Source: Mizuhopecten yessoensis (Eukaryota). Taken from it: DNA of 64,000 nt. The number at the start of each line of letters is the position of its first letter. The stretch's first letter is position 1. The notes below the pieces were generated by a model. It saw only the letters and a program-made list of their open reading frames with translations, made no database searches and was not told the origin of the DNA. Positions 11,308-54,344 of this stretch are shown here, piece by piece. The DNA lies in NCBI RefSeq assembly GCF_002113885.1, contig NW_018408761.1:997580-1061579 (forward strand), in the 5' to 3' direction. The translations under genes and the position numbers were made by a program.

Positions 11308-12033
11308 GTATATAGGTTACACCATCATATCACATACACACAGCTGTGGGATACCCCAACTAACACTTCAGTCCTGACAGATCACATTTAACGCTCTGAA
11401 CTTTTGAAATCACTATGAAATATTCTGAGATAACAATTGTCTTCTGATGTCAATTCAAGTACGCACTCAGGTGTTCAAAGATTTCAAATATCTTGTGATA
11501 TTATGTCCTAAACAATTATGTGTCTTAGGCCCCTTTCGTGTATCCGGTTGAACCTGAAAGAAAACGACAGGCGCAGATCTGAACCAAGGTTGACCTCCGG
11601 AATATTTGGCACGTGTAGATTGTGGGTTCCAGAGGTGCCTGACCGAAACTAAAATGCTGACTATTTTTAGTTTGCATTATTTCTTTATAAAACAAGGTCA
11701 ACCCACATATAGATTTTAAGCTACGTTATATAATTTACTTGACGCGTGAAAAAAGAACATATAATTCTAGATGTATTGTTTTCTGTTCTCCGAAACTGCA
11801 TTTTTAGCTCCACCTTCAGTTCGGTCCAAGTGCATTTGTTTATGGTGGAATATTTCTGGGCCACCTGAACCGTTTAGACTCGTATACACAAATGCGACCT
11901 TAATCTATATGTCTTGAATTCTCGAGGATTAAGCTTGTAATCTGTCCATGCTATAAGAAATGAGTACAGAATGAATAAAAAAATAACATTTTTTTGGCCG
12001 TAGCTTGTTAATGACATCCTAGGTGTGAGTGAG

Positions 12034-14645: not shown

Positions 14646-16213
14646 TTTTTAGGTCACCTGGTTGGATTTTTTTCAAACTTGGTCAGAATCATCCTTGGTA
14701 GATGAGGCTACAAAATTGTAAAATTGGGATTCCTACCCCAACCCCTGGGGCCAGGGCGGGGCCCCAAAGGGAAAATTAACCAATATTTCAAAAATCTTCT
14801 TCTTCAGACTCAGAGGTACTACATTTTCTCTACACGAAAAGAAAGATCATCAGTGGCTTTACTTAAATTGTAAATTTCAGGACCCCCAAGCTATCCGTTC
14901 TCCCTTGGGGAGGGGGTAAAGTTTACTATAGTTTATATAGGGAAATAACACTTTTGGGTATATTTTGACAACTTTCTGTAGGAAATTATTTTTACTTGGT
15001 GAGAATTATCCTTGGAGGTAGATGGTTTCAAATTGTAAAATTGAGATTCCTACCCCGACCCCTGGGGCCAGGGCGGGGCCCCAAAGGGAAAATTAATCAA
15101 TATTTCAAAAATCTTCTTCTCCAGACTCAGAGGTACTACAGTGATTTTCTCTACGTGGAAAGAAAGATCATCAGGGGCTTTACTTAAATTGTAAATTTCA
15201 GGACCCCCGAGCTATCCGTTCTCCCTTGGGGAGGGGGTAAAGTTTACTATAGTTTATATAGGGAAATAACACTTTTGGGTATATTTTGACAACTTTCTGT
15301 AGGAAATTATTTTTACTTGGTGAGAATTATCCTTGGAGGTAGATGGTTTCAAATTGTAAAATTGAGATTCCTACCCCGACCCCTGGGGCCAGGGCGGGGC
15401 CCCAAAGGGAAAATTAATCAATATTTCAAAAATCTTCTTCTCCAGACTCAGAGGTACTACAGTGATTTTCTCTACGTGGAAAGAAAGATCATCAGGGGCT
15501 TTACTTAAATTGTAAATTTCAGGACCCCCGAGCTATCCGTTCTCCCTTGGGGAGGGGGTAAAGTTTACTATAGTTTATATAGGGAAATAACACTTTTGGG
15601 TATATTTTGACAACTTTCTGTAGGAAATTATTTTTACTTGGTGAGAATTATCCTTGGAGGTAGATGGTTTCAAATTGTAAAATTGAGATTCCTACCCCGA
15701 CCCCTGGGGCCAGGGCGGGGCCCCAAAGGGAAAATTAACCAATATTTCAAAAATCTTCTTCTCCAGACTCAGAGGTATTACAGTCATTTTCTCTGCATGG
15801 ATGGAAAGATCACCAGGGGTTTTATTTAAATTGTAAATTTCAGGACCCCCGAGCTATCCGTTCTCCCTTGGGGAGGGGGTAAAGTTTACTATAGTTTATA
15901 TAGGGAAATAACACTTTTGGATATATATTTTATCCATTTTCAGCAGAAAATTACTCAAACTTAGTCAGAATCATCTTTGGTGAATGAGAGTATTACTTTG
16001 GGAATCCTGTCCCATCCCCAGGGGCTAGGGCGGGGCCCCAAAGGGAACATTTACCAATATTTTCAAATTCTTATCCTTTGATGTCATGACAAGTATTGTA
16101 TTTCACTTAGTTTACATGCTGATTTCCACTTCACATCTAAACAATAAAATAAAGCTACCAGTACCTATGATATAACTCAGGTGACCGCTAAGGCCCTTGG
16201 GCCTCTTGTTTTT
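14646..16213 (+). mobile_element. Composite non-autonomous element, family B, with internal 321-bp tandem array
   Basis: Head TTTTTAGGTCACCTGG (14646). Tail CTCAGGTGACCGCTAAGGCCCTTGGGCCTCTTGTTTTT (ends about 16213). Lies in intron 12. Confidence 0.7.
14680..16080. repeat. 321-bp tandem repeat, about 4.3 copies
   Basis: Two identical 63-codon ORFs and one variant copy start at 14996, 15317 and 15638, an exact 321-bp spacing. Partial diverged copies lie at both ends. Confidence 0.95.
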
Positions 16214-18305
16214 AAATGAATTGAAAAAACCTATACCATCAAACCTCATTAATCAAGTCTCTTTGGTTCTAAAATATTTTCCAGATTATTATACCCTAGT
16301 CAACTAATCGTTGAGGGTATATAGGGATCTGCCCGTACATTTTTTCATCCTACGTACATAGGTGTCCCAAATGGTGTCACTGCTCTACAGACTTCATTTC
16401 TTATTTGTTTTTCACAAAATTTTACACACATTTTGCAAACATCATTTCTTATTCAAAAAATGGTAGTTTCTACTTCTGCTTAGCGCTCAGCATTTTGGAA
16501 GTGGGACAACTGATTCGCCCAATGTCAGTATAATGTGACCGGGTGAGGTGTCCTGTTGGATGTCTTCGGTAGAATGCTTTAGTGCGGTAGTACTATAAAG
16601 TTGACATCAGTTCGCGCTATCACAAGAGGACAAACACGAACATAACACTTCACGCATGCATCTCGCACACCACAAAAATATATGCCGTCTCATCCCTGAT
16701 GTCGTGTATAATGTCGTGTATACACGACAATTAAGAGACTTTGGTGTTACCTGCCTTATTTTTAGCTAGTAATTGCACACGAAAGTCGCGTAATCAAATT
16801 AATTGTCGCTAAAATCACCACCCACTATTTGGAAAAAAAAAAAAATTTATAGGTGCAGGGTACACATTTTTCATCATGTGACCTATTGTTTTCAAATTTC
16901 CCACAAGATTTTTGCATTTACTGGTCTCCAACATACACAATATGGCGGCGACTTAATTCGGTACGAACACTCGTAATATTATCACTAATTATGTAATGAG
17001 ACTTTTGGAAGTAAATAGGAATATTATGTACAATAGTTGTTATATATGTACCAAAGAAAGGAAGCTATCTGGATACGCCGCAGTGGGCCAGTTCTAAATC
17101 GAGACGAGGGGGCTCAAAGACTCTCACGTCTATGACCAAGTGTTAACAAAGCGTAGCTGAACTGAGTCATTTCGGTACATATATAACAACTATTGTACAT
17201 ATACGTTTCCAGCGTAGCCGAAATCGACATAGATTTTATGGATAACTCGTACACATTTTACACCTTTGTGTGCATATGCTTCATTGGTCATTTGTCTGAT
17301 GAAGGTGACAGTGTACATATCGTACTAGTCATCGAAACGTCACATAGAAAATGTTATTGGTTGTGTAAAAAGAACTTCTCATAATCCATACTTACCAACC
17401 TGATTTTTTTTTTTAGAAAAAACAAAAGGAATCATATTGTTCGTGCCGGACAAATGTCGATTTCTCATTCATAATCAGTTGCAAGTTAGTCATAATGCTT
17501 CAGAAATGAAGATGTGTATGTCTTTAAACAATTCCATAAAACAGTAACAACATTTGTTCACGGTTACCTGTTTATTTCTTGCAGCAGTTACACCTCGTCT
17601 TAAAAGTACATTAATAATCCGCCATTTTTTTATATGTGCGGGGGCGATTTTAGTAAGGACATCGGATACGGAATCCGGACTGGAGTTGCGGTACGGAAGT
17701 AGTTAAACAATACAAACCAAACCTTATCCGATTGTCACGAAACTTCACACACCATAGACCATTTGATTAGGAATCTGCTGGGTTATTAATCTAACAGACT
17801 TTTATCACTATTCTAGTATTTATTGTAAGATTGACCACTTCAAAACTGTAATACAGATTTTTAATTCACACTTCTTAAAACCATTTATAATGAAGTGTTT
17901 TTTGGAGGAATCTGTATAGTTTTAATGAGCAACTGTTCAAGCTGTAAATTGCTTTCAATTTCATTTTTTCTCTGTTAATGAAATGAAGTTCATCTATAGT
18001 GGACATGGCTTTAAAATTTACAAATCGCATTCAAGATTAGATATTAGACAAATTTTGTTTACACAGAGAACTGTTGATTTATAGAACAATCTTCCGTCTA
18101 ATGTTGCCGGTTCAAGCATAGTTAAACAATATAAACAATAAGATGAACACTGGCAACACCAAATGCAGAAATACAGTGTTGAAGAAAAAATCGAAATCTT
18201 AATGTCAAAACTTGTGAAATATGTTTTTATTAAAATATTTTTTATTTAAGAGCTGACTATCAAAGGATTGTAAAATCCTAATTTTTCAACTAACCAATTT
18301 TTCAG

Positions 18306-18433
18306 ACATATCTGATGTTAAAGACCTTCCAGACCCTCTCCAGAAAGTCCCTGGGGGCCTGATTGGGGGTAAAAAATCAGTACCTCTCAAGTGTGTCCAT
18401 ATCAGGGCCAGTATGCTGGACATGGTGGCTAAG
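18306..18433 (+). CDS. PARP4: PARP4-like exon 13 (linker / start of VIT)
   Basis: Acceptor CAATTTTTCAG|. (D)ISDVKDLPDPLQKVPGGLIGGKKSVPLKCVHIRASMLDMVAK. Donor AAG|GTCAGT. Confidence 0.75.
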
Positions 18434-18652
18434 GTCAGTGAAATGCCAGAAACATCTGTGTTAAAAGTAAATCCATAGTTTTACAGATCAGACCTCTGTA
18501 AGTAATAAGTGAATGGTTTAAGGTTGGTCCATAAATATGAGGAGATGGAGTTGGTAGGTACTAATCTTTGTGTCCCCACCTGCTGCAATTAGTTTTTTGC
18601 ACAATTTCTGTCTTACTCTGATCTGTAAATTCTTTGGATCATTTAAATCAAT

Positions 18653-19404
18653 GGGCAGGTGAGCTAATGCCATGGCACAGCGTTCGTCGTTCTTCGTCCA
18701 TCCATCCATCAACTTTTCCTTTAAAACACTACTTGTCCTGAATGGCCTAGTAGATTTTGACTAAATTTGGTCTGGAGCATCTTTAGGCTAAGGGGACTCA
18801 ATGTTATATAAATGGTGGGTGTGGACTCCCTTGGGGCAGACGGGTGGGGACGAATAGGGGAAATTGAGGTAAAACATTTAAAATCCTTCTTCTACCATAG
18901 CAATTAAGGGATTATATCTTAATTTGGTCTGGAGCATCCTTGGACTAAGGGGACTCAATGTTGTATAAACGGTGGGTTTAGACCCCCTTGGGGCAGAGGG
19001 GTGGGGCCAAATAGGGGAAATAGAGGTAAACTTTTAATATATTTCTTTTACCATAGGGATCAAGGGATTTCATCCCAATTTATTTTTGGAGCATCCTTGG
19101 GCCAAGGGGACTCAATTTTATATAATTGGTGGGTTTGGACCTCCCTGGGGCAGAGTTGCATCACCCAATAGGGGAAATAGAGGTAAAAAACTTTGAAATC
19201 CTGCTTATACAATAGGGATCAATGGATTTCCGGGTGAGGCCTCTCTGGGTGCTGAGAGTTGCGGGGCCAAATAGGCAAAAGAGAAATTCGAGGTTTTAAT
19301 CTTTAAATTCTTTCTTCTTCTCCATTGGAGGGATTTTATGTAATAAAAATAATTTCCCATTATTGCTTTATTATCCAGGTGAGCGATACTGGGCCTCTTG
19401 TTTT
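18653..19404 (+). mobile_element. Composite non-autonomous element, family A (5'-truncated), with internal approximately 150-bp units
   Basis: Begins inside the head motif (GGGCAGGTGAGCTAATGCCATGGCACAGCG). There are 4 units of GGTCTGGAGCATCCTTGG.CTAAGGGGACTCAATGTT.TATAAA.GGTGGGT..GGAC.CCCTTGGGGCAGAG.GGTGGGGCCAAATAGGGGAAAT. Tail TCCAGGTGAGCGATACTGGGCCTCTTGTTTT. Confidence 0.6.
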
Positions 19405-19424
19405 ACTTTCAATTATCAACTCAG

Positions 19425-19590
19425 ATACATACAAACACTGTTAATGTTTTATCACAGATTCATACAAACACTGTTAATGTTTTATCACAGATACATACAA
19501 ACACTGTTAATGTTTTATTACAGTTACATACAAACACTGTTAATGTTTTATCACAGATACATACAAACACTGTTAATGTTTTATCACAAG
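19425..19590. repeat. 33-bp tandem repeat, 5 copies, 19 bp upstream of the exon 14 acceptor; each unit ends in a pyrimidine-rich ..TTTTATCACAG
   Basis: ATACATACAAACACTGTTAATGTTTTATCACAG five times. It explains the repetitive N-terminal part of track ORF 19363-19752. Confidence 0.95.
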
Positions 19591-19608
19591 AACTACTCTT
19601 TGTTCCAG

Positions 19609-19735
19609 GTTGTGGTTCTCCAGAAATACAGAAATGACAACGACTCGGCGATCGAGGCCAAGTACATCTTCCCACTGGATGACACAGCAGCTGTTTGTGG
19701 GTTTGAAGCATTCATTAATGGAAAACACATTGTTG
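19609..19735 (+). CDS. PARP4: PARP4-like exon 14 (VIT core)
   Basis: Acceptor CTTTGTTCCAG|. VVVLQKYRNDNDSAIEAKYIFPLDDTAAVCGFEAFINGKHIV, near-identical to the vertebrate PARP4 VIT core. Donor GTTG|GTGAGT, phase 1. Confidence 0.95.
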
Positions 19736-20570: not shown

Positions 20571-21494
20571 TTTAACTCACCTGCCCGAAGGGCAAGTGAG
20601 CTTATGCCATGGTGCGGCGTCCGTCGTCTGTCGTCCGTCTGTCCGGCGTCAACTTTTTACTTTAAACAACTTCTTTTCAGTAACCAAAAGGCCTAGGATG
20701 ATGATATTTGGCCAGTAGCATGCTGGGATGAAGGGCTACCAATTTTGTTCAAATGAATGACCTTGACCAATGTTCAAGGTCACAGGGGTCAAATGTCTTT
20801 AAATATTCAAACAACTTCTGCTCAATAACCAAAAGGCCCAGTGTACTGATATTGGGCCTGTAGCATGCTGGGATGAAGGACTGCCAAGTTTGTTCAAATG
20901 AATGACCTTGACCAACTTTCAAGGTCAAAGGGGTCAAATGTCTTAAAATCTTCAAACAACCTCTTCTCAATAACCAAAAGGCCAATGGAACTGATATTAG
21001 GCCTGTATCATGCTGGGATGAAGGGCTACCAAGTTTGTTCAAATAAATGACCTTGACCAACTTTGAAGGTCACTGGGGTCAGATGTCTTAAAATCTTCAA
21101 ACAACTTCTTCTCAATAACCAAAAGGCCCACGGTACTGATATTGAACCTGTAGCATGCTGGGATGAAGGACTACCAAGTTTGTTAAAATGAATGACCTTG
21201 ACCAATTTTCAGGGTCACAGGGGTCAAATGTCTTTAAATCTTCAAACGACTTCTTCTCAATAACCAAAAGGCCCAGGGTACTGAAATTGGACCTGTAGCA
21301 TGCTGGGATGAAGGACTACCAAGTTTGTTCAAATGAATGACCTTGACCAACTTTCAACCTAATGTCCTTGTTTGACAATCAAGGTCACAGGCATCATATG
21401 TTTAAATCTTTTAATAGGTTCTTATGAAATCTTATGATTACAAGTGTGAGATTAATACCAGGTGAGCGATGCAGGCCCATTGGGCCTCTTGTTT
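20571..21494 (+). mobile_element. Composite non-autonomous element, family A (ends TTAACTCACCTGCCCGAAGGGCAAGTGAGCTTATGCCATGG... / CCAGGTGAGCGATGCAGGCCCATTGGGCCTCTTGTTT), with internal approximately 120-bp units
   Basis: There are 6 units of ..AACAACTTCTTCTCAATAACCAAAAGGCCCA.GGTACTGATATTGGGCCTGTAGCATGCTGGGATGAAGG.CTACCAAGTTTGTTCAAATGAATGACCTTGACCAACTTTCAAGGTCACAGGGGTCAAATGTCTT. The termini are inverted (AGCTCACCTG / CAGGTGAGC). Confidence 0.7.
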
Positions 21495-32488: not shown

Positions 32489-33507
32489 GTGAGTGATCCA
32501 GTCTCATCACCTTGTTGTATGAGGCTTTGTTATTGTTGGTTGTAAGCAAGGGAGAAACTCTCAGCATCATCCTGAGAAAATAATCTGACCCAAGCATCTG
32601 CACTAACAAATCTCATATGAAGGATTGTAATTTTAACACAGTACTGGGTCTCTTCTAAAGTGGTGGACGTTTTTTTGTTTCAAACATTACTATACTGTAG
32701 ACCTTGGTTTGAACTCTCATACTAGTAGAATGACTCAGGCATTTATATTCACAAAGTTCACTACAAAGCAAACAGTCATTTAAGTCAGAATGAACAAAAA
32801 ATATAACACTGAGTTCCTTGTTAAATTTCTTTTTGCAAATAATGTTAACGAGCTTTCCTTTAGCATAGGAAAGGGGGTGAGTCTAAATTACAGGTAACAA
32901 ACTTAGTGGTTAAACTATATCATAGTGATCTCAATGTCTTTACTCTAATATACAATTTCGCAACTTTCGTGTTGAGCGATAAACTTCATGTTTTTCCTGC
33001 CATATAATTTCACTGAACCTATTGGAACAGAAGATAATGCCCAAATTCTTCAAGAATTTCTTGAAGTCTCTCAAAAAACAGGGACATAATTCAAATCAGA
33101 GCTTAGTCAATGATTAAAGCTTAATAGGGTAGAAACATGCAGACTAGATCACAAATTAAAAACAAATTTTGCTACTGAAATCATCACATTACATATTGGA
33201 ATACTGGTAGAAGTGGTTCAGTATGATTTACAGAAACAATTATACATATAGATTTGAAATATAGCATTACAAAGAGACAATCTACAGGAAATACGTGTTT
33301 AAAGCTGTCAATCAATATCCATTCCCTTAGTTAACTCATTCACCCCTGATTTCATAATGAATTATTCCAAACTTTGAATTGGAAGAGTTCAAATGTGTCT
33401 TCAGGGGTAATTGAGTTAAATATGATCTCTGAAAATTTCATCTTTAAGAGATATTTAAGAGGTAGTCTTGTACTTCTATGTCACTTTTATGTTTTAATAC
33501 TCTCCAG

Positions 33508-33678
33508 ATGAACACTCAAGTTCAGAAGGCATGCCGTCCAGGTATTTCTGGTGTTAAAGTGGAGTGGCAGCAAAACATGGACACGACCAACAGACCTCTT
33601 CAGGCCCCTAATCACATCCCAAGTTTGTTTTCTGGGTCACGACAGGTCGTGTATGGCTTTGTACCTAACTGTACACAG
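33508..33678 (+). CDS. PARP4: PARP4-like exon 23
   Basis: Acceptor ATACTCTCCAG|. MNTQVQKACRPGISGVKVEWQQNMDTTNRPLQAPNHIPSLFSGSRQVVYGFVPNCTQ (compare vertebrate ..VSVKWQQ...LQAPAQVPSLF...LLVYGFIPHCTQ). Donor CAG|GTGAGA. Confidence 0.9.
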
Positions 33679-35760
33679 GTGAGAATTTTTATTACACTGA
33701 TGTGCTGGTAAGCAGGGGTTCAACTAGTTATATCTTTGTATGGCTTTGTACCTAACTGCACACAGGTGAGAATTTTTATTACACTGATGTGCTGGTAAGC
33801 AGGGGTTCAACTACTCCCCTCGGTAGGGACAAGTTATATCTTTGTATGGCTTTGTACCTAGCTGTACACAGGTGAGACTTTGTATTACACTGATGTACTG
33901 GTAAGCAGGGGTTCAACTACTCACCTCGTTAGGGACAAGTTATATCTTATCTTTGTATGGCTTTGTACCTAACTGTACACAGGCGAGAATTTTTATTACG
34001 AGGATGTGCTGGTAAGCAGGGGTTCAACTACTCGCCTCGTTAGGGACAAGTTATATCTTTGTATGGCTTTGTACCTGAATTTAGGCAGGGGAGGCTTTGT
34101 ATTACACTGATGTGCTGGTAAGCAGGGGCTCAACTACTCACCTCGGTAGGGACAAGTTATATCTTCATATGGCTTTGTACCTAACTGTACACAGGTGAGA
34201 ATTTTTATTACGAGGATGTGCTGGTAAGCAGGGTTTCAACTACTCACCTCGGTAGGGACAAGTTATATCTATGTATGGCTTTGTACCTAACTGTACACAG
34301 GTGAGACTTTTTATTACGAGGATGTGCTGGTAAGCAGGGGTTCAACTACTCCCCTCGGTAGGGACAAGTTATATCTTTGTATGGCTTTGTACCTGAATTT
34401 AGGCAGGGGAGGCTTTGTATTACACTGATGTGCTGGTAAGCAGGGGTTCAACTACTTATTTCTGGTGTTAAAGTGGAGTGGCAGCAAAACATGGACACGA
34501 CCAACAGACCTCTTCAGGCCCCAAATCACATCCCAAGTTTGTTTTCTGGGTCACGACAGGTCGTGTATGGCTTTGTACCTAACTGTACACAAGTGAGAAT
34601 TTTTATTACGAGGATGTGCTGGTAAGCAGGGTTTCAACTACTCACCTCGGTAGGGACAAGTTATATCTTCATATGGCTTTGTACCTAACTGTACACAGGT
34701 GAGAATTTTTATTACACTGATGTGCTGGTAAGCAGGGGTTCAACTACTCCCCTCGGTAGGGACAAGTTATATCTTTGTATGGCTTTGTGCCTAACTGTAC
34801 ACAGGTGAGACTTTGTATTACACTAATGTGCTGGTAAGCAGGGGTTCAACTACTCACATCGGTAGGGACAAGTTATATCACGCTTTATATCTAGATAAAA
34901 TAAAACGAGTTCATTACAAAGATGACCGGACAAAAAATGATGTATTCAATATCAATATCAATATTGATATATCTTTGTATGGCTTTGTACCTAACTGTAC
35001 ACAGGTAAGACTTTGTATTACACTGATGTACTGGTAAGCAGGGGTTCAACTACTTACCTCGTTAGGGACAAGTTATATCTTTGTATGGCTTTGTACCTAA
35101 CTGTGCACAGGTGAGACTTTGTATTACACTGATGTGCTGGTAAGCAGGGATTCAACTAGTTATATCTTTGTATGGCTTTGTACCTAACTGTACACTGGTG
35201 AGACTTTGTATTACGAGGATGTGCTGGTAAGCCGGGGTTCAACTACTCACCTCGGTAGGGACAAGTTATATCTATGTATGGCTTTGTACCTAACTGTACA
35301 CAGGTGACACTTTGTATTACGAGGATGTGCTGGTAAGCAGGGGTTCAACTACTCCCCTCGGTAGGGACAAGTTATATCTTTGTATGGCTTTGTACCTAAC
35401 TGCACACAGGTGAGAATTTTTATTACACTGATGTGCTGGTAAGCAGGGGTTCAACTAGTTATATCTTTGTATGGCTTTGTACCTAACTGCACACAGGTGA
35501 GAATTTTTATTACACTGATGTGCTGGTAAGCAGGGGTTCAACTAGTTATATCTTTGTATGGCTTTGTACCTAACTGCACACAGGTGAGAATTTTTATTAC
35601 ACTGATGTGCTGGTAAGCAGGGGTTCAACTAGTTATATCTTTGTATGGCTTTGTACCTAACTGTGCACAGGTGAGACTTTGTATTACACTGATGTGCTGG
35701 TAAGCAGGGGTTCAACTACTCACATCGGTAGGGACAAGTTATATCACGCTTTATATCTAG
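33543..35760 (+). repeat. Minisatellite (about 86-110 bp unit, about 19 copies) seeded from the last codons plus 5' splice site of exon 23; includes a 136-nt second copy of the exon 3' part at 34457-34592
   Basis: Each unit starts with TATGGCTTTGTACCTAACTGTACACAG|GTGAGA (YGFVPNCTQ plus donor). It continues with ATTTTTATTACACTGATGTGCTGGTAAGCAGGGGTTCAACTAC(TCACCTCGGTAGGGACAA)GTTATATCTTTG. Confidence 0.9.
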
Positions 35761-35920
35761 ATAAAATAAAACGAGTTCATTACAAAGCTGACAGGACCAA
35801 AAATGATGTATTCAATATCAATATCAATATTGATTATATTAGGAGACTGTAAGTGCAGAATTAAGTTCTTTGCAAAGGGGTTTTTAATGTGTGGTGGAAC
35901 TGGAATGGGTTGATTGTCGG

Positions 35921-36010
35921 TGGCCAGGTAGCTCAAATAGTAGTGTCTGTCTAGTGTTGTGAGGGTTCCAGGTTTGAACCCCAGTCTGGCCATTGCATTT
36001 CTGTTTTGCA
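35921..36010 (+). mobile_element. tRNA-derived SINE head (degenerate A and B boxes)
   Basis: GGCCAGGTAGCTCAAATAGTAG...GGTTCCAGGTTTGAACCCCAGTCTGGCCATTGCATTTC. A related, better preserved copy lies at 62690-62790. Confidence 0.45.
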
Positions 36011-36078
36011 ACAAATGTATTGTTGTGTCTGGTTGTAATTTGGTTAGTCTGTTTAATGAAGAAGGTAAAAAGGTTATA

Positions 36079-37118
36079 TTAGCTCACCTATGAGCTTATG
36101 GTATGGCGTGTTGTCACTCGTCTGTCATCCGCCCGTCATTGAGTCTGTCGTTCATCGTCCCATCAACGTTTTCTTTGAATGGCTTGTTCTCAAGAACTGG
36201 AGGACCTAGGGCCATGATATTTGTTCAGTAGGTACCTGGGACAGAGTGCTGTAATATTTTCTCAAATAAATGACCTTAACTTACTTTCTATGTCACAGGG
36301 GTTAAATATATAAAAAAACCTTTAAACAACTTCTTCTGAATAACCAGGAGGCCCAGAGTAATAATACTAGGTCAGTATGTACCTGGCATGAAGTGCTATA
36401 AAGTGTCCTCAAACAAATGACCTTGACTTACTTTCAAGGTCACAGGGGTCAAATGTGTTTAAAAACCTTTAAAACATCTTCTTCTGAATTTCTGAATAAC
36501 CAGTAGGCTAAGAGTCATGATATTTGGTTTGGCCAGTAGGTTCATGGGACAGAGTGCTATAAGTTTTCCTCCAATAAATAACCTTGACCTACTTTCAAGG
36601 TCATGGGTTAAATATGTAAAAAATAAATTAAACATCTTCTTCTAAATAACCAGGAAGCCCAAAGTAATAATACTTGGCCAGTAGGTACCTGGCATGAAGT
36701 GCTATAAAGTTTCCTCAAATAAATGATCTTGACATACTTTCAATGTCACAGGGTTCAAAATTGTAAAAATCTTTAAACAACTTCTTCTGAATAGCTAAGA
36801 GGCTTAGAGCAATGATATTTGGCTAGTAGGTACCTGGGACAGAATGCTATCACGTTTCCTCATATAAATTACCTAGACCTCCTTTACAGTCACAGGGTTC
36901 AAATATGTGAATACTTCTTCTGCAATACCAGGATGCCCTCATTGATGATGTTTGACAAGTAGCATGCTGGGATAGAGTAGTATAAAGCTTCATTTAGTCT
37001 GGAGCATTCTTAAGCCAAGGAAACTCAATATATTAAAATATTTACAAAAGTACTTTTATTGAGAATATTTTCCCATGATTGCTCAAATAACCAGGTGAGT
37101 GATAAGAGGGCCTCTTGT
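36079..37118 (+). mobile_element. Composite non-autonomous element, family A, with approximately 120-140-bp internal units
   Basis: Head TTAGCTCACCTATGAGCTTATGGTATGGCGTG. Tail AACCAGGTGAGTGATAAGAGGGCCTCTTGTA. The internal units are related to those at 20571-21494. Confidence 0.65.
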
Positions 37119-37340
37119 AAAATGATTAAAGAGTTTCTCCATTTCAGAATGTTGTCAGTCTGTTAGAGATATATATAGATGGTAATATTTGCCTCGGACA
37201 AATAACAAACTTACAATGTCGGATCATACCAAGGTAAATATCTCTTTGTAACAATAACAAACTTACAATGTCGGATCATAACAAGGTAAATATCTCTTTG
37301 TAACAATAACAAATTACAGCAACCATCATTTATTTTACAG

Positions 37341-37421
37341 GCCTATTTGAAGGCAACTGTGGACAACATGGAGGTTTCTACGATGGTAGCAACAACAGAA
37401 CTCAACATTACACAAGGAGAG
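37341..37421 (+). CDS. PARP4: PARP4-like exon 24
   Basis: Acceptor TTTATTTTACAG|. AYLKATVDNMEVSTMVATTELNITQGE (compare vertebrate ..EFRTMVSTTELQKTTGT). Donor GAG|GTAATC. Confidence 0.85.
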
Positions 37422-37803
37422 GTAATCAACATCAATTAGAAATGGAAAATGTATTCTATTATAATATCTCATTGCTTGTGAACAGAACTCCTTTTTCAAC
37501 ATCTCGTTCATTCAGATAAATTAAAGTCTATCTACCAGAAGCATAACATTTACATCAGACTTCCAAAGGTGAATTCAAAGCATTTCTCTTGGTTGTCATT
37601 TATATTTACTTGATATTTTGTACTTTACACCACAAGCTTTCTAGTTAATTAAATCAGATTATCAGGGCCCTAGCTGGTGATTTTTATGTGAGTAAATAAA
37701 TTCTACAACCTGTGTGAAAGTTTGATGGAATAGCAGCATTGAAAACAATGTTACCTGTTTTACATGTAGTTCTCTCCCCTGATTGGATATATTTTGTCCC
37801 CAG

Positions 37804-37884
37804 ATGCTGCATCAGCTGACGGCTCGTGCGGTGATCCGTGACTACGAGGATGGCATCCTTTGTGAGGACAAGATACAACAGCGG
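37804..37884 (+). CDS. PARP4: PARP4-like exon 25
   Basis: Acceptor TTTTGTCCCCAG|. MLHQLTARAVIRDYEDGILCEDKIQQR (compare vertebrate MIHKLAARALIRDYEDGILHE). Donor CGG|GTAGGT. Confidence 0.9.
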
Positions 37885-38640
37885 GTAGGTACTCGTGCAA
37901 ACATAATCTCTTATTTTGCAATTATTCAAATGCTATTGGTACAAATTCTCAAGAAACACAAAAAAAAAAATCATAACATTAAATTACTTTTGAATAATTG
38001 AAATAATACAGAGTTGGCTGTTGGCTGTCATTGACCGTGACAAAAGGTGGATTGTTGTTCTGATGGTACTTACCAAACATACAAAACTTGTTTGCAAAGC
38101 TGTCCTTTCTGGTTTGGTCCTCTATACATCAACTAGCCAAAGATATTGCAATGATTCCCATGAAGGTTTTGTTGTAATGATTGAATCATTGCAATTAACT
38201 TAGTCATGATGAATGGATACAACCAATATTTCAGATCTAGTATTATCAAAGTTTTGTTAGTGTATAACCTGTTTCTCCATGATCAAAGAATTTTAACGTG
38301 TTTGGTGCCAACTCATGCTGGATATCTTATAGACTCTATACTGCAGATAACTCTGACCAAGATCACTGTTTCCAAGTGCTTCCATTGTGCTAAACCCTTG
38401 GTTAACGGTTACTATCCCATTGTTCTATAGATTAACCTGAAGAGAAATTCCATCTAGCCGAATCAGTAACAAAGTTTCTAAATAATTCACCACTTTGACA
38501 TAGCCCTCCATGGAAGGACCTGACCCCTAAGACTTCAGTGACAACCATAATTATGCCTTTAAGAGTAAGGCTAAAGAGATGATAAAACATAGTATTGTGA
38601 TCACATTGTAAGCACCAGTGTATACGTAACTGAGATCCTT

Positions 38641-43239: not shown

Positions 43240-43925
43240 TGGGCTGTTCAAATCACTATTCATCTGTGGTCTGTCTTCCATTCATCATTCAGTCCATCCA
43301 TCCATCCATTTGTCCTTAAACAATTCTTGATAGTGCTATTTCTCAGAGAGATCTTTCTCAAGTTTCACCTGAAGGTTCCCTTTGTTCCCTAGTTATGCTT
43401 ATCAAATTAAGGGTCCTGACAAAGTGTTGTTATTTTTCGGGTCGATCAAAATTCCAATATGGCCGACATGGCCACCATTTTGAAAAAAAACAATTTCAAA
43501 CTTAAGGTCAAGTTCTGCTGGGCCGATTAAACTTAAACTTTTTAGGAATGATCGACTTATTGTCCTGACAAAGTGTTGTTATATTTCGGGTCAATCAGAA
43601 ATCCAATATGGCCACCACGGCCCCCATTTTGAAAAACTATTTCAAACTTAAAGTCAAGTTCTAATGGGCCGATTAAACTGAAACTTTGTAGGAATGATCG
43701 ACTCATGGTCCTGACAAAGTGTTGTTATTTTTCGGGTCGATCAGAAATACAATTTGGCTGCCATGGCCGCTATTTTGAAAATAACTATTTCAAACTTAAA
43801 ATCAAGTTCTAATAGGCCCATTTAACTGAAACTCTTTCTAAGAATGATCAGCTCATGGTCCTGACAAACTTAAGTTAACGTTATACTTAACTATTTTTTA
43901 CTCAAATTGGTACATATTTCAACAA
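43240..43925 (+). mobile_element. Family B element (approximately 131-bp units, about 3.5 copies), 3'-truncated
   Basis: Same GGTCCTGACAAAGTGTTGTTATTTTTCGGGTCGATCA.AAAT.CAATATGGCC...GCC.CCATTTTGAAAA units as 6443-6886. No tail motif. Confidence 0.55.
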
Positions 43926-44738: not shown

Positions 44739-46463
44739 TTTTAGCTCACCGGCCTGAAGGGCAAGTGAGCTTATGCTATGGCGCGGCGTCAGGCATCCGT
44801 CATCTTTTCCTAAAAAACGCTACTTGTCATAAACGACTGAGCAGATTTTGACCAAATTTGGTCAGAAGCATCCTTATGGGAAGGGGAACAAATTTTGTAT
44901 AAATGGTGGGTCTGGCCCCCTAGGGGCTGAGGGGTGGGGCCCAATAGGGAAAATATAGCAAATTCTTTAAAATCCTTCTTCTTTTGTAGGAATAAAAGGA
45001 TTGGTTCCATATTTGGTCTGAAGCATCCTTGGGGGAAGAGGAACCAATTTTGTATAAATGGGGGGTCTGGCCCCTGAGGGGCCTGAGCGACAGGCCAAAT
45101 AGGGGAAACATAGCAAATTCTTTAAAATCCTTCTTCTGTAGGAATGAAAGGATTTGTTCCATATTTAGTCTTAAGCATCCTTGGGTTAAGGGGAACCAAT
45201 TTTGTATAAACTGTGGGTCTGGCCCCTTTGGGGCCTGAGCGACGGGGCCCAATAGGGGAAACATAGCAAATTCTTTAAAATCTTTCTTCTGCAGGAATGA
45301 AAGGATTTGTTCCATATTTGGTCTGAAGCATCCTTGGGTGAAGTGGAACCGATTTTGTATAAGCAAGGGGTCTAGCCCCCATGGATCTGAGGGGCGGGGC
45401 CAAAAGGGGTCAATTGCGCTATATTGATTTAAGCGACTTCTTCTCTGGAACTAAGAGATGGATATCAACCATATTTGACTGGAAGCATCCCTCTGTAGTG
45501 GAGATTCACAATTGTACAAATGGTTGGGCTGACATCCCAGGGGGCTGAGGTGCGGGTCCAAAAGGGCGCAATTTGGCTATATTGGTGTACGACTTCTTCT
45601 GTAGCATTATACCATGGATATCGATCATATTTGGTCAGAAGCTTTCATGGGAAGTAGGGATTCAAAATTGTACAAATGGTGGGGCTGACCCCCCGTGCTA
45701 AGGGGTGGGGCCAAAAAAAGTTTATTACTTGGAAATGGTTGAGATCCCAACCATATAACCATATATATAATTGTGGAGTATGAAGAGAAGCATTCACATT
45801 TGCTTCAAGGATGGCCTAGGGTCTGGCCCCACCCTTTGAGACATAGTCCCTGGGTCATATCTTTGAAACGATTGAGATCCGCACCCCAGAACTATATATA
45901 CAAATGCTTGGCATAAAGAGACAAAAGTAGTCATGGTATTAAAATAGACCCTGGGGTCTGACCGAACCCCTAGGGACCTAGTTTCTTAGTCACAGCTTCG
46001 AAACAGTTGAGATCCCCACCCTATAACTATGCATATATACAATTGCTGAGTATAAAGAGATGAATGCACATATGCTTCCAGGATGGCCTTGGGGTCTGCC
46101 CAAACTTTGCAGACTTAACCCCTGGGTAAATATAACTTTGAAACAGTTGAGATCCCCACCCCAAGACTATAAATACAAATGCTAGACAAAAAGAGACGAA
46201 TATAGTCATGATATTATAATTGATCCTGGCGTCTGGCCACAACCCGAGGGATCTAGTTTCTGAGTCACAGCTTGGAAACAGTTGAGATCCCCACCCCATT
46301 ACCATACATTAAATTGCTGGGCATGAAAAATCTAATACAGACATACTACAAGAATTGACATTGGGGTCTGGCATATACCCTTGGATCTCATTTGGAGAAT
46401 ATTTTGCTTTTTGATTGCTTAGATATTCAGGTGAGGAATTCAGGCCCTCTGTGCCTCTTGTTT
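44739..46463 (+). mobile_element. Long family A composite element (three different internal tandem arrays), ending about 130 bp upstream of exon 31
   Basis: Head TTTTTAGCTCACCGGCCTGAAGGGCAAGTGAGCTTATGCTATGGCGCGGCGTC. Internal arrays of about 120 bp (44860-45400), about 165 bp (45400-45720) and about 150 bp (45720-46320). Tail TTCAGGTGAGGAATTCAGGCCCTCTGTGCCTCTTGTTT. Confidence 0.7.
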
Positions 46464-46777: not shown

Positions 46778-48637
46778 TTTAGCTCACCTGCCCGAACGGC
46801 AAGTGAGCTTATGCCATGGCGCGGCGTCCAGCATCCTTCAACTTTTCCTAAAAATCGCTACTAGTCATAAACGACTGAGCAGATTTTGACCAAATTTGGT
46901 CAGAAGCATCCTTATGGGAAGGGGAACAAATTTTGTATAAATGGTGGGTCTGGCCCCCCTGGTGGCTGAGGGGTGTGGCCCAATAGGGAACACATAGTAA
47001 ATTCTTTAAAATCCTTCTCCTTCTGTAGGATTGAAAGGATTTGTTCCATATTTGGTCTGATGCATCCTTAGAGAAAGAGGAACCAATTTTGTATAAACCG
47101 TGGGTCTGGACCCCGAGGGGCCTGAGGGGTGGGGCCCAATAGGGAACACATAGTAAATTCTTTAAAAACCTTCCTCTTCTGTAGGAATGAAAGGATTTGT
47201 TCCATATTTGGTCTGAAGCATCCTTAGGGAAAGAGGAACCAATTTTGTATAAACCGCGGGTCTGGCCCCCGAGGGGCCTGAGGGGTGGGGCCCTATAGGG
47301 ATCACATAGTAAATTCTTTAAAATCCTTCCTCTTCTGTAGGAATAAAAGGATTTGTTCCATATTTAGTCTGAAGCATCCTTGGGTAAAGGGGAACCAATT
47401 TTTTATAAACCATGGGTCTGGCCCCACAGGGGCCTGAGCGACGGGGCCCAGTATGGGAAACTGAACAATTTCTTTAAAATCCTTCTTCTCTGTAGGAATG
47501 AAAGGATTTGTTCCATATTTGGTCGGAAGCATCCTTCGGTGAAGGGGAACCAATTTTGTATAAACAAGAGGTCTGGCCCCCAGGAACTTGAGGGGCGGGG
47601 CCAAAAGGGGGCAGTTGCGCTATATTAATTTAAGCGACTTCTTCTCTGGAACTAAGGGATAGATATCAACCATATTTGACTGAAAGCATCCCTCGGAAGA
47701 GGAGATTCAAAATTGTACAAATGGTTGGGCTGACCCCCCGTGCTAAGGGGTGAGGGTTGCTATTAACGACTTATTCTGTAGAATTATGCTAAGGATATCA
47801 ATCATATTTGGTCAGAAGTATTCATGGGAGGTAGGGATTCAAAATTGTACAAATGTTTGGGCTGACCCCCCTGTGCTAAGGGGTTGGGCCAAAAAAGGTT
47901 TATTACTTGGAAATGGTTGAGATCCCCGCGGTATAACCATATATACAATTGTGGAGTATAAAGGGAAGCATGCACATTTGCTCCCAGGATGGCCTAGGGT
48001 CTGGCCCCACCCTTTGAGACATAGTCCCTGGGTCATAACTTTGAAATGATTGAGATTTCCACCCCAGAACTATATATACAAATGCTTGGCATATAGAGAC
48101 AAAAGTAGTCATGGTATTAGAATAGACCCTGGGGTCTGACCGAACCCCTAGGGACCTAGTTTCTTAGGCAAAGCTTCGAAACAGTTGAGATCCCCACCCT
48201 ATAACCATGCATATATACAATTGCTGAGTATGAAGAGATGATTGCACATATGCTTCCAGGATGGCCTTGGGGTCTGCCCCACCCTTGCAGACTTAACCCC
48301 TGTGTCATAACTTTGAAACAGTTGAGATCCCCACTTTAAAACTATATACAAATGCTGGGCTTAAAGAGAAGAAACCAGTCATGATATTAAGAATTGATCC
48401 AGGGGTCTGGCCACAACCCTAGGGATCTAGTTTCTGAGTCACAGCTTGGAAACAGTTGAGATCCCCACCCCATAACCATACATTAAATTGCTGGGCATGG
48501 AAAATCTAATACAGACATACTACAAGAATTGGCATTTGGATCTGGCATATTCCCTTGGATCTCATTTGGAGAATATTTTGCCATGATTGCTTAGATATCC
48601 AGGTGAGCGATTCAGGCCCTCTGGGCCTCTTGTTTTT
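46778..48637 (+). mobile_element. Long family A composite element, starting about 84 bp downstream of exon 31
   Basis: Head TTTTTAGCTCACCTGCCCGAACGGCAAGTGAGCTTATGCCATGGCGCGGCGTC. Same array order as 44739-46463. Tail TCCAGGTGAGCGATTCAGGCCCTCTGGGCCTCTTGTTTTTT. Confidence 0.7.
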
Positions 48638-48765: not shown

Positions 48766-50481
48766 TTTAGCTCACCTGGTCCGAAGGACCAGGGTGAGCT
48801 TATGCCATACCATGGCATCCGTCGTCCGTACGTACGTCAACAATTTCTTTAAACGACTTCTTCTTCTTAACCACTGGTTGGAATTAAACTAATTTTGACT
48901 GGAAGCATCCCTAGGTGGTTGGGATTCAAAATTGTACAAATGGTGGGGCTGACTCCCCAGGGGGCTGAGGGGTGGGGCCAAAAGGGGTCAATTTGCCCAT
49001 ATTGCTGTAAGCGACTTCTTCTCTGGAACTAAGAATTGGATATCAACCATATTTGACTGGAAGCATCCCTAGGTGGTGGTGATTAAAAATTGTACAAATG
49101 GCGGGGCTGACTCCCCAGGGGGCTTAGGGGGGGCCAAAAGGGGGCAATTTTGCTATATTGCTACAAACGACTTCTTCTGTAGAACTGTGCACTGGATATC
49201 AATCATATTTGATCAAAAGCATTCCTGGGAGGCAGGGATTTAAAATTGTACAAATGGTGTGGCTGACCCCCCAGGGGGCTGAGGGGCAGGGCCAAAAAGG
49301 GTATTTGGCTATACTGCTTTAAGTGACTTCTTCTCTGGAACTAAGTGATGGATATCAACCTTATTTGACTGGAAGCATCTCTAGGTGGTGGAGATTCAAA
49401 ATTGTACAAACGGTTGGGCTGACCCCCCAGGGGGCTGAGGGGCGGGGCCAAAAGGGGGCAATTTGGTTATATTGCTATAAATGACTTCTTCTGCAGAACT
49501 ATGCCATGGATATTGATCATATTTGGTCGGAAGTATTCATGGGAGGCAGGGATTCAAAATTGTACAAATGGTGGGGCTGACCCCCCGGGCTAAGGGGTGG
49601 GGCCAATAAAATGTATTACTTGGAAATGGTTGAGATCCCCACCATATAACCATATATACAATTGCTGAGTATAAAGAGAAGAATGCACATTTGCTTCCAG
49701 GATGTCCCTAGGGTCTGGCCCCACCCTTGGAGACATAGTCCCTGGGCCATAACTTTAAAACGGTTGAGATCCCCACCCCAAAACTATATATACAAATGCT
49801 GGGCATAAAGAGACGAATGCAATCATGATATCAGAATAGACCCTGGGGTCTGACCGAACCCCTAGGGACCTAGTTTCTTAGTCACAGCTTGGAAACAGTT
49901 GAGAGCCCCACCCTATAACCGTATATATACAATTGCTGAGTATAAAGAGATGATTGCACATATGCTTCCAGGTTGGCCTTGGGGACTGCCCCACCCTTGG
50001 AGACTTAACCCCTGGGTCATAACTTTGAAATGGTTAATATCCCCACCCCAAAACTATATATACAATTGTTGGGCATAAAGAGACGAATGCAGTCATGACA
50101 TTAGAATTGATCCCAGGGTCTGCCCCACCCTTGCAGACTTGGCCCCTGGGTCATAACTTTGAAACGGTTGAGATCCCCACACCAAAACTTTATATACAAA
50201 TGCTTGGCAAAAAGAGACAAATGCAGTCACGATATTAGAATCGATCCTGGGGTCTGGCCACAACTCTAGGGACCTAGTTTCTGAGTCAAAGCTTGGAAAC
50301 AGTTGAGATCCCCACCCCATAACCATACATAAAATTGCTGGGCATGAAAAATTTAATATAGCTATGCTACAAGGATTGGCCTTGGGGTCTGGCATATTCT
50401 CTTGATCTCATTTGGAGAATAGTTTGCCATGATTGCTTAGGTATCCAGGTGAGCGATACAGGCCCTCTGGGCCTCTTGTTT
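48766..50481 (+). mobile_element. Long family A composite element (third consecutive copy)
   Basis: Head TTTTAGCTCACCTGGTCCGAAGGACCAGGGTGAGCTTATGCCATACCATGGCATCCGTCGTC. Tail TCCAGGTGAGCGATACAGGCCCTCTGGGCCTCTTGTTT. Confidence 0.7.
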
Positions 50482-51232: not shown

Positions 51233-51459
51233 GACATGAATGAGTATGATCAGATATATGGTAAGAAGGTGCATACGGAAAAGGACAAAAGCTGTACTGA
51301 TGATGGAAAAAACCCGGTGAAGATGTCCTCATTGTTTTCTCCTTTTAGGCAATCCTTACGAATGATGGCTCCAAGGAAACAGTTAGCAACCAAAGCTGCC
51401 AGAAAATCTGCACCTGCAAACTTTGATGAAAATGAGGAGGAGCAGAATGAGGATGACAG

Positions 51460-51497
<38 letters not shown>

Positions 51498-54313
51498 TTG
51501 AAAAGATGGGCAACTTTAGCTGCATGGCACTTCCAGATGACAACGTGGTTGATGATGCTACGAACAAGAAACAGGAAGTGTCAGATGTAGGAAGAATACC
51601 AGACTCTCCACTCTCAGCAACACAGTTTGGCCCCTTGTCTCCAAAATGTTCAGATTCATTTGGTACAAACTTTGAAAAATTTGAAATCTCTCAGTATTTA
51701 GATGAAGACATGGAGATTGATTTAGATACTGAAGACCCGGCATTCCTCATTCTCACTTCTGAAATATCTGACATATTTTCACCTTCAATGGCAGGCCATT
51801 CTCAGGACACTCCAGCCTATATATCAACCTCCCCATCTTACAAACCAACTTCCCCATCCTATTCGCCCACTTCCCCATCTTACAAACCAACTTCCCCATC
51901 CTATTCGCCCACCTCCCCATCTTACAAACCAACTTCCCCATCCTATTCGCCCACCTCCCCATCTTACAAACCAACTTCTCTATCCTATTCGCCCACTTCC
52001 CCATCTTACAAACCAACTTCTCCATCCTATTCACCAAATAGAAGAGCACGAAGAGCCAAATCAACATTTGAGGATTTCCAACATGAATCAACATCAAACA
52101 ATAAAGATTTTGTGGTTTCAGGTTCAAGACAAGCAAAGTCAAGCAGCACATCTAGTGAACATGGTTTGTGTGGAGCTCCAGTGCAAGCAGAACCAGGCAG
52201 TAAACCAAGTCAGAGCTTCAATTTTAATGCTTCGCTACAAACAGCATCAAGCAATGAACCAACACAAAGTTTGGGATTGGGGGCTCCAAACCTAGCAGAA
52301 CTAGGCGGTAAACCAAGTCAGGGGTTCAATTTTAGTGCTCCTCTAGTAACAGCATCAAGAAATATATCAACACAAAGTTTGGGATTGGGGGCTCCAAACC
52401 TAGCAGAACCAAACACAATGCCAAGTCAAGGGTTTTCCTTTGGAGCTCGAATGCAAACAACTCAAAGCGCTTCACCAGCCGAAGGTTTCAGTTTTTCTCA
52501 GAATCAAACATTGCAGAGCATTACCAGTAAAGGAAGCCATTGTTTTGGATTTGGGACTTCAAAACCAGCCGGAGCAAGCAGAACGACAAGTCAAGGGTTT
52601 TCCTTTGGCGCTCAAATGCAGTCCCAACGATGCAATATACCAACCCAAGATTTCTATTTTGGAGCTTCAAATTCAGCAGGTTTTGGAGATGACGGTGACA
52701 GACGTGGTGGTTATGGAGGTGTCAGTGTTAGACCTGGTGGTTATGGAGATGACAGTGACAGACGTGGTGGTTATGGAGGTGTCAGTGTTAGACGTGGTGG
52801 TTATGGAGGTGTCAGTGAGGGACTTGGTGGTTATGGAGGTGTCAGTGTTAGACGTGGTAGTTATGGAGGTGACAGTGTTAGATGTGGTGGTTATGGAGGT
52901 GTCAGTGAGGAATGTGGTGGTTATGGAGGTGTCAGTGAGGGACTTGGTAGTTATGGAGGTGTCAGTGAGGGACTTGGTAGTTATGGAGATGACGGTGTCG
53001 GACGTGGTGGTTATGGAGATGACAGTGTCGGACGTGGTGGTTATGGAGGTGACAGTGTCGGAGGTGATGGTTATGGAGGTGTCAGTGAGGGATTTGGTGG
53101 TTATGGAGGTGACAGTGAGGGATGTGGTGGTTATGGAGGTGTCAGTGTTAGATGTGGTGGTTATGGAGGTGTCAGTGAGGGACGTGGTGGTTATGGAGGT
53201 GACAGTGAGGGACGTGGTGGTCCTAGACTTGCTGGTTCTAAAGATGGACATGTTTCTTACATAGAAACAGCACCAACATTTACATATTTGAAGGATCTTG
53301 ACTTGAATTTAGCAAAACATGATCCAAAAACTAGGATATTGAAGGAAAATGACAGAAGACCTTCCAGTGTAACAGAGAAGGATCTGCCTTCACAGCCTTT
53401 CAGACATGTACAGGATAAAATGTTCCCACCAGACTTTGATGAATCCTTATTACCTAAACAAAAGAGAAAAATTCCTCCTGTTGGAAGAGGAGGTTCTGGA
53501 TTCACTGCAAGGAATGACCAGGGTCCTGCTGAAACAACCAAAGAACAAGGTCGAAGGTCATTAAAGTCAGTCAGAGGCGCAATGCATGGTGCAAGATCAA
53601 GAGACAGAAATAGGGAACAATCTCGTGAGCTTATTGTGCTGGATAAGAGTAAAAAACTAAGTTTGAGTCATGACAGAAGGCGGAGGAGTTTGAGTAGAAG
53701 TTTGAGTCGAGACAGAAGACAGAGGAGTTTGAGTAGAAGTTTGAGTCGAGACAGAAGGCGGAGGAGTTTGAGTAGAAGTTTGAGTCGAGACAGAAGGCGG
53801 AGGAGTTTGAGTAGAAGTTTGAGTCGAGGAAGGGGGAGAAGAGACTTGGAAAGATGTTACAGTAGAGATAGAGCAAGAAAGGAAAATAAAAAAATGCACA
53901 GATCAAGTGGAAATAATGATACAAACAGTAGGAATAAAAATAGGGACAAAGCAGGAAGCAAAATAGACAGAGATCCTGCAAGAGAAAGTAAGAAACAGAT
54001 AAAGCATAAAAATGAAAAGAAGGAGCAAACAAAGGCTGATGAACAGGTTGTCAAAACATTTGGGAAAAAAGGGAAGAAAAGGGAACAGACAAGGGATGAT
54101 GAAGAGATTGTCAAAACTGGAGGGAAGAACCTGTCAGGAAAGTTGGAATATGATGATCATGAGAAAATGGACTTTACAGTGGACATGGCACCAACTTTGA
54201 AAGTCTGGGATGTAACATCAGAGACAGGCAAGGACATTGTGAAATTCATAAAGTATATTTCTGATTCAATCTTCTTTTATATACAAAAGATCTGTAATTT
54301 TCTACAAATTCAA
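51233..54313 (+). CDS. PARP4: PARP4-like exon 32: 3081-nt low-complexity exon (H3-tail copy, poly-Asp, CTD-like heptads, FG-like, GGYGG, RS and Lys-rich modules)
   Basis: Acceptor TTCTGTATTTCAG| with phase 0 from exon 31. Single open frame of 1027 codons (the track ORF 51236-54337 is the same frame). Donor CAA|GTGAGC after ..KICNFLQIQ (compare vertebrate PARP4 ..SCFLQIK..). An alternative weaker donor is ATCT|GTAATT after 54293. Confidence 0.8.
51368..51418 (+). other. Histone H3 tail copy: [17 protein letters not shown] (identical to H3 residues 15-31)
   Basis: Direct translation of GCT CCA AGG AAA CAG TTA GCA ACC AAA GCT GCC AGA AAA TCT GCA CCT GCA in the exon 32 frame. Confidence 0.9.
51461..51496 (+). 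repeat. (GAT)12 coding microsatellite, poly-Asp tract
   Basis: Twelve uninterrupted GAT codons within [18 protein letters not shown]. Confidence 0.95.
51824..52039 (+). repeat. RNA polymerase II CTD-like heptad array (42-bp two-heptad unit, about 10 heptads)
   Basis: [72 protein letters not shown]. Confidence 0.9.
52214..52687 (+). other. FG-nucleoporin-like segment
   Basis: SFNF, GFNFS, GFSFG, GFSFS, CFGFG, GFSFG, FYFG and AGFG motifs, separated by uncharged S/T/Q/N/A/G/P-rich spacers. Includes a 34-aa duplicated unit ([20 protein letters not shown]). Confidence 0.7.
52700..53221 (+). repeat. 30-bp coding tandem repeat, about 17 copies of the decapeptide (R/L/C)GGYGG(V/D)S(V/E)(R/G)
   Basis: [50 protein letters not shown]...[14 protein letters not shown]. 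Other frames on both strands stay open across it because of the repeat. Confidence 0.9.
53657..53833 (+). repeat. 42-bp coding tandem repeat, 4 copies of [14 protein letters not shown] (RS-domain-like)
   Basis: [62 protein letters not shown]. Confidence 0.9.
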
Positions 54314-54344
54314 GTGAGCTTAAGTGAACTTTCTTGATTAGCTT

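Follow-up and report, generated by a model that had tools for sequence, protein, structure and literature searches.

The 64-kb window (the whole stretch of DNA that was analysed) carries a gene which, as judged from its sequence, is PARP4-like (vault PARP) and of the PARP/VIT/VWA type. Sixteen exon segments upstream of the exon discussed here were mapped by homology. Searches of the neighbouring upstream exons with Pfam gave a weak PARP match (20 bits, a 48-aa fragment), a VIT domain (E = 1e-12) and a VWA_3 domain (E = 3e-11), the PARP catalytic, VIT and VWA domains following one another in that order on one strand. The exons of the window are, in addition, collinear with those of two metagenomic loci (L004 and L005), whose products contain PARP, VIT and VWA, and the JGI name of one homologue is poly [ADP-ribose] polymerase; taken together, these data point to a PARP4-like host. 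A search of the protein database found no sequence of the same species, the best matches being 38-65% identical and belonging to other species. In the same window, positions 51236-54337 hold an ORF of 1033 aa consisting mostly of repeats, with (S/K)PTSPSY and GGYGG(V/D)S units and a third unit of 12 letters. The (S/K)PTSPSY units resemble the heptad of the RNA polymerase II CTD, and the ORF could represent the terminal exon of the PARP4-like gene or belong to another gene.

The limits of the intron discussed below were set by homology to orthologues (Table 1), and its length of 3662 nt agrees with the 3.66 kb, with the next exon at 37341, that were given in the initial annotation of this DNA. 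The acceptor position of the authentic exon is common to the window and to one of the orthologous loci, L002. The intron preceding this exon is present in the window and in L002 and absent from L001 (3650-3900), and the homologues P0007 and P0008 have no intron at the ...CTQ/A... site (here and below, the slash marks a junction), so that intron positions vary among orthologues.

Table 1. Features of the exon-intron junction and of the intron downstream of it (positions in the window)
Feature	Position	Strand	Details
Authentic exon	33508..33678	+	171 nt, phase 0; encodes MNTQVQKACRPGISGVKVEWQQNMDTTNRPLQAPNHIPSLFSGSRQVVYGFVPNCTQ; translation and tblastn to orthologous loci L001-L008
Authentic 5′ splice site CAG/GTGAGA	33676..33684	+	8/9 consensus positions; U1 duplex -11.1 kcal/mol
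Host intron	33679..37340	+	3662 nt; limits set by homology to orthologues
Junction-derived minisatellite	33650..35747	+	19 units, 2.1 kb; unit 1 (33650-33736) is the real junction
Second donor-like motif CTG/GTAAGC	33705..35707	+	19 copies, one per unit; U1 duplex -8.0 kcal/mol
Long exon copy	34457..34592	+	134/136 identical to 33543-33678, with CAA/GTGAGA next
Internal copy of the 3′ flank of the array	34880..34968	+	97% identity of 34762-34968 to 35628-35834
Original 3′ flank of the array	35746..35834	+	unique intron sequence, continuing downstream
Next exon	37341..37421	+	AYLKATVDNMEVSTMVATTELNITQGE; donor GAG/GTAATC

The array at the beginning of the intron is built from the exon-intron junction itself. 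Each unit joins 29 nt from the exon end (33650-33678) to the 58 or 77 nt with which the intron begins; the real donor lies inside unit 1, between 33678 and 33679, and 18 copies then follow head-to-tail. The periods reported by TRF were 87 and 106. When the array was cut at TGTATGGC, 19 units resulted, with spacings of 87 nt (five times), 106 nt (eleven times) and 111 nt (once) and two long intervals, of 186 and 200 nt, containing inserted material. The 87- and 106-nt units differ by a 19-nt indel, CTCCCCTCGGTAGGGACAA. As to the long intervals, in unit 8 (186 nt) a truncated unit is extended by 107 additional nucleotides of exon sequence, while in unit 11 (200 nt) a unit is succeeded by 89 nt copied from the 3′ flank of the array. 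The junction 33-mer TATGGCTTTGTACCTAACTGTACACAGGTGAGA was matched 17 times with at most one mismatch, always on the + strand and between 33652 and 35676, against 0 matches expected from 100 shuffles. A fuzzy search with a junction-straddling 33-mer (TATGGCTTTGTACCTAACTGTACACAG/GTGAGA) retrieved 19 copies, all of them on the + strand within the same interval and two of them with 7 mismatches, and found none elsewhere in the 64-kb window. The repetition of the exon 3′ end and its donor about 19 times, which had been noticed at the outset, thus stands as the junction and 18 copies of it; of the further details of the unit, the shared exon part has to be corrected from 27 to 29 nt and the end of the array from about 35760 to about 35747. 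A head-to-tail tandem array of units of minisatellite size, with the authentic exon-intron junction as one of its end units, has the structure of the minisatellites known as 'mirages', to which we return below.

The long exon copy is formed by the extra 107 nt of unit 8 together with the 29 exon nt of the next unit. Comparison of 34457-34592 with 33543-33678 located the same two changes as had been described initially, 33609 T>A (CCT>CCA) and 33678 G>A (CAG>CAA), both of them synonymous, and the same intact GTGAGA. The synonymous character of both changes carries little weight, because there are only two of them and one probably comes from the constrained real exon: two orthologues have CCA, and it is therefore in the real exon that the CCT/CCA change probably arose. 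On its left the copy adjoins the truncated unit by an abrupt junction (..CAACTACT/TATTTCTGG..), and no part of the upstream intron or of the acceptor was found to be copied along with the 136 nt.

It could be supposed that the array, especially from the 136-nt copy onward, was created by the assembly, two haplotypes or collapsed reads having been joined in tandem. The copy and the exon are 1.5% different, as alleles of highly heterozygous invertebrates may be. At its left junction, however, the copy is dissimilar to the sequence upstream of 33543, and this lack of similarity makes an overlap-based mis-join unlikely. Although a mirage mis-assembly was reported for the amphioxus draft genome (PMC3087553), the units in the window differ from one another by many distinct substitutions and form three subtypes, the copies of the duplicated flank are 3% diverged, there are no Ns, and an array of the same kind is present on an independent contig of long reads, belonging to another species (L003, see below). 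All this makes an assembly artefact very improbable.

The units themselves bear the marks of a history. Their mean core identity is 91.7%, and three sequence subtypes can be distinguished among them; units 2, 16, 17 and 18 are identical over a 76-nt core, from which unit 1 deviates by one base. The array thus combines homogenised blocks with diverged variants, as is expected of the turnover of mirages. Over 207 nt comprising unit and flank, 34762-34968 and 35628-35834 are 97% identical, and since this match includes the flank, the duplicated block must have comprised ~866 nt of array and flank. We infer that the subtypes, the identical neighbouring units and the higher-order duplications reflect ordinary minisatellite turnover. 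From this anatomy, the following scenario may be proposed: a segment comprising 29 nt from the exon end and ~77 nt from the intron start would have been duplicated in tandem, and the junction-spanning duplicate would then have been amplified by slippage or unequal exchange. A larger duplication, whose left breakpoint lay in the exon, 136 nt from the junction, would have supplied the 136-nt exon copy, a second one (~866 nt) would have taken in the 3′ flank of the array, and a 19-nt indel would account for the 87-bp and 106-bp unit variants.

The direction of this process can be judged from eight orthologous junctions (L001-L008) of other species, which were collected by homology searches and contig look-ups. 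All of them end in ...VVYGF(V)xxC(T/M)Q/GT at the same place (...VVYGFVPNCTQ/GT in the window), that is, the donor position is conserved in nine species, the window included. In seven of the eight orthologues no junction repeat was found within the 180-10,000 nt available past the exon, and the intron sequences of the window and of the orthologues are unalignable. The conservation of the exon end in eight other species, together with the absence of the array from seven of them, indicates that the exon is ancestral and the array derived and lineage-specific. The comparison with orthologous introns, which had been recommended as a check, has thereby been made, and its result agrees with the initial proposal that a satellite was born from an exon-intron junction. 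The conservation of the nucleotides of the last codons (AAC TGT ACA CAG) was also considered as a possible signal and dismissed, as it extends to 5 of the 9 species only and is a lineage effect.

The opposite direction, in which a pre-existing satellite or mobile-element array gave rise to the end of the exon or a mobile element captured a fragment of it, is suggested by the many element-borne arrays of the window, with 134-157-bp units at several sites. Yet the peptide YGFVPNCTQ, encoded by the end of the exon with the 29 shared nt, is conserved in nine species, where the donor also keeps its position, and the unit occurs at a single site in the window, on one strand and contiguous with the exon. 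Furthermore, reading of the sequence at 33300-36100 disclosed no terminal repeats or other hallmarks of an element on either side of the array. With the junction present in nine species and the unit confined to it within the window, an origin from the gene itself is preferred, and a foreign origin seems to us extremely improbable.

Altogether, the window contains 22 separate tandem arrays, covering 18% of its length. Downstream of the junction-derived array, the intron harbors a repeat element built internally of 145-bp tandem units (36214-36908). It also contains 2.3 repeats of a 52-bp unit (37201-37318), which stop 22 nt short of the next exon's acceptor and carry a donor-like AAG/GTAAAT in each copy. 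Tandem array families with units of 145-157 bp recur in the window (36214-36908 and 20660-21357; 18764-19228, 44852-45362, 46890-47609 and 48894-49606; 43412-43868 and 56396-56845), which suggests that they are internal repeats of dispersed elements. Two other arrays were considered as candidates for a similar origin and rejected. The 321-bp array at 14677-15926 lies ~110 nt past the donor and looks like a dispersed, mobile-element-like repeat. The 33-bp array at 19422-19588 (five units) cannot strictly be called a mirage, its unit being without exon sequence; it lies directly upstream of the VIT-domain exon (acceptor between 19608 and 19609), and its units end in the acceptor-like TTTTATCACAG, the last copy reading CAA. 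As for the tRNA-like look of 35925-35990, ARAGORN found no tRNA in 33000-38000, and Rfam at its gathering thresholds gave no match in the whole window.

Among the eight orthologues, the only one with an array at the same donor is L003, a 522-kb long-read contig from a distant species. Its array (10197-11539) consists of 24 repeats of 56 bp, each made of the last 46 nt of the exon and the first 10 nt of the intron, and GT is kept in all 23 copies. One of them, at offset +168, stays in frame without a stop and could add 56 aa. The arrays of the window and of L003 have different unit boundaries and unrelated intron parts, the proteins are 57% identical in this exon, and species devoid of the array are at least as close to the window and to L003 as these two are to each other. 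These differences and the equally close array-less species lead us to infer, from the sequences compared, that the two arrays originated independently.

In the same gene, L003 has three more mirages, situated on the acceptor side (5596-5933, 8395-8905 and 15349-16020), with units of 67, 74 and 62 bp that comprise the acceptor and the first 15-43 nt of an exon. Two other arrays of this contig, 18193-18802 and 19507-19656, were evaluated as boundary-derived and rejected. Thus 4 of the 10 arrays of L003 lie over an exon boundary, against ~0.7 expected under random placement of the founding unit (post hoc P ~0.003-0.007). The window does not display such an excess: among its 22 arrays there is one boundary hit, which is within expectation for a sequence so rich in tandem arrays. 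The independent reiteration of one orthologous donor in two distant species and the boundary arrays of L003 could be taken to mean that, in certain invertebrate genomes, minisatellites arise by preference at exon boundaries and do not hit them at random; we regard this as unlikely. If this were the case, splice-site regions or co-transcriptional processing would be mutationally linked to tandem duplication, and boundary arrays could be a source of intron gain and of new exons beyond cephalochordates. One junction hit twice and one orthologue with four mirages are a comparative hint that makes the origin of such arrays testable genome-wide. As to the recurrence at the same donor, it was also considered as evidence of function and set aside: one donor-side mirage among the ten mapped donors of L003 gives P ~0.1 for hitting this particular one, and so the recurrence is not significant.

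Within the array, GT is kept in 15 of the 18 copies of the authentic donor, the remaining three having GC (one copy) or GG (two copies). Eleven of the 15 are exactly CAG/GTGAGA, one is CAG/GTAAGA (-11.0 kcal/mol) and three are weakened, so that 12 copies equal the true donor in U1 pairing; the initial statement that most units have a consensus-looking donor is hence justified. The nearest of these decoys lies 87 nt from the true donor. In addition, CTG/GTAAGC, invariant, stands 29 nt after the junction-derived donor in every unit, and the real intron accordingly opens with two strong donors in tandem. The strength of this second motif falls inside the range of the other real donors of the gene (-6.7 to -9.2 kcal/mol). 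The first in-frame stop past the true donor is a TAA at 33709-33711, 31 nt into the intron and part of the first GTAAGC motif, which means that the use of any decoy would give a premature stop. Counted per column, variants number 0.46-0.85 in the part derived from the exon, 0.56-1.0 across the 9-mer of the donor and 1.0-1.07 in the part derived from the intron. With respect to the rest of the unit, the decoy donors have neither decayed nor been preserved, and no sign of selection on them is seen. Folding of the RNA of the junction and the first units produced structures no more stable than those of shuffled sequences (z = -0.92), and no structure distinguishing the real donor was found in it.

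Can the array nevertheless be functional in splicing, as the initial annotation asked when it proposed a splicing buffer or a substrate of recursive splicing? The copies might serve as a U1 platform that buffers or tunes the donor, lead to unproductive splicing with nonsense-mediated decay (NMD), protect from premature polyadenylation, or act as zero-length recursive sites (AG/GTGAGA). The means are at hand: a stretch of 2 kb offers 12 full-strength and three weaker GT copies besides 19 GTAAGC sites, AATAAA motifs are present in the intron, and the orthologous donor of L003 has been reiterated independently. Moreover, the length of the ABCA7 VNTR is reported to affect splicing (PMC5954066). 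The array is, however, missing at seven of the eight orthologous junctions, the donor columns are not preferentially conserved, and the copies are silent in the analogues that were tested (F7, LMNB2, PDGF and amphioxus genes). The recursive form has additional arguments on its side, as each copy (..CCTAACTGTACACAG/GTGAGA) juxtaposes a 3′ and a 5′ splice-site motif and the pyrimidine fraction of the copies, 0.6, equals that of two real acceptors among the three examined. With a CTAAC motif present as well, recursive use is conceivable as far as motifs go; this CTAAC is, however, the sole clear candidate for a branch site and has its A ~11 nt from the AG, and the intron measures 3.66 kb. Known recursive splicing proceeds through ratchet points that are conserved and lie in very long introns. 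The copies in the window are in an intron of 3662 nt and are missing from seven of the eight orthologues. In view of the short intron, the absence of the array from most relatives, the lack of an excess of donor conservation and the lack of a special RNA structure, the buffer and the recursive substrate are not supported, and we hold a function of the array in splicing to be very unlikely in any of these forms.

We consider it very likely that the array is a neutral, lineage-specific intronic 'mirage' minisatellite, in the presence of which the first donor would be used and the rare products of decoys would be removed. By analogy with human and amphioxus genes, the exon would be defined by its acceptor and the first donor downstream, so that the authentic, most upstream donor would be chosen, and the 15 GT-bearing copies and the 19 GTAAGC sites would stay largely silent. 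A decoy used occasionally would leave the TAA in a transcript with a premature termination codon (PTC), which would be eliminated by NMD. The array would have no function of its own, and at most its length may modestly tune the efficiency of splicing. The silence of the decoys is assumed from these analogous genes; against it one can cite the 12 decoys that match the real donor in strength, and the proximal decoys that are used in IFI6, CBS and ABCA7 (PMC1557585, PMC5954066).

The array could provide a natural test of 5′ splice-site choice, with 12 competitors of equal strength at 87-1992 nt, each of which would lead to a PTC. It also calls for caution with gene predictors and assemblers, as a decoy donor may be taken for a real one, or the 136-nt copy for an exon.

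Arrays of this kind are not without precedent. Exon-boundary 'mirage' minisatellites are a described class, to which the array in the window belongs in all structural respects and to which it adds a well-preserved boundary-spanning example in a PARP4-like gene. Minisatellites whose first monomer spans the exon-intron boundary and reiterates the donor are known from several sources (PMC1557585, PMC3087553, PMC3902484, PMC5954066). A parallel for donor choice is intron 7 of human F7 (IVS7), with a 37-bp unit repeated 5-9 times, in which the pseudo-sites are functional and only the most upstream donor is chosen, as was demonstrated experimentally and termed 'oriented scanning' (Borensztajn et al., 2006, PMC1557585). 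The question of how splice-site choice is kept faithful, raised initially, is not new, having been answered by experiment in F7, where the most upstream donor wins (PMC1557585). As in F7, the first monomer in the window spans the boundary and pseudo-donors follow the authentic donor; those of F7 are identical to it and its unit includes 4 exon nt in 5-9 copies, while the unit in the window includes 29 exon nt and its 19 copies have diverged.

In unit size and copy number, the array is similar to those of LMNB2 (100 bp, 10-15 copies) and PDGF intron 4 (81 bp, 16-18 copies), which also reiterate an exon-intron junction and in which the authentic donor alone is used (cited in PMC1557585), although these are vertebrate genes without homology to the locus in the window. 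Like the VNTRs of IFI6, CBS and ABCA7, it contains the donor. In IFI6 (6-16), with 25 pseudo-sites, and in CBS intron 13, with 15-20 repeats, two pseudo-sites are used too (PMC1557585), and the ABCA7 intron 18 VNTR, which includes the donor, gives a PTC when one unit is retained, the length of the array correlating with changes in splicing (PMC5954066). The units of these three VNTRs are, however, 12-31 bp long, which places decoys very near the true donor, whereas in the window the nearest one is 87 nt away and every product contains a stop. With recursive splice sites, the copies share a juxtaposed AG/GTRAGT that would regenerate a 5′ splice site; unlike ratchet points, they are recent, lie in a 3.66-kb intron and are missing from relatives.

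The array also resembles the amphioxus mirages, described in Adh3, the globins BflGb6 and BflGb9, TnC (troponin C) and PGBD5, where splicing is reported to be undisturbed and a route of intron gain has been proposed (PMC3087553, PMC3902484). These, too, are tandem duplications across an exon-intron boundary that reiterate AG or GT signals, with units of tens to ~160 bp that are 81-100% identical and evolve in concert within an array. The array in the window differs from them in its PARP4-like host gene and in its greater length (19 units, 2.1 kb), its higher-order duplications and its 136-nt exon copy.
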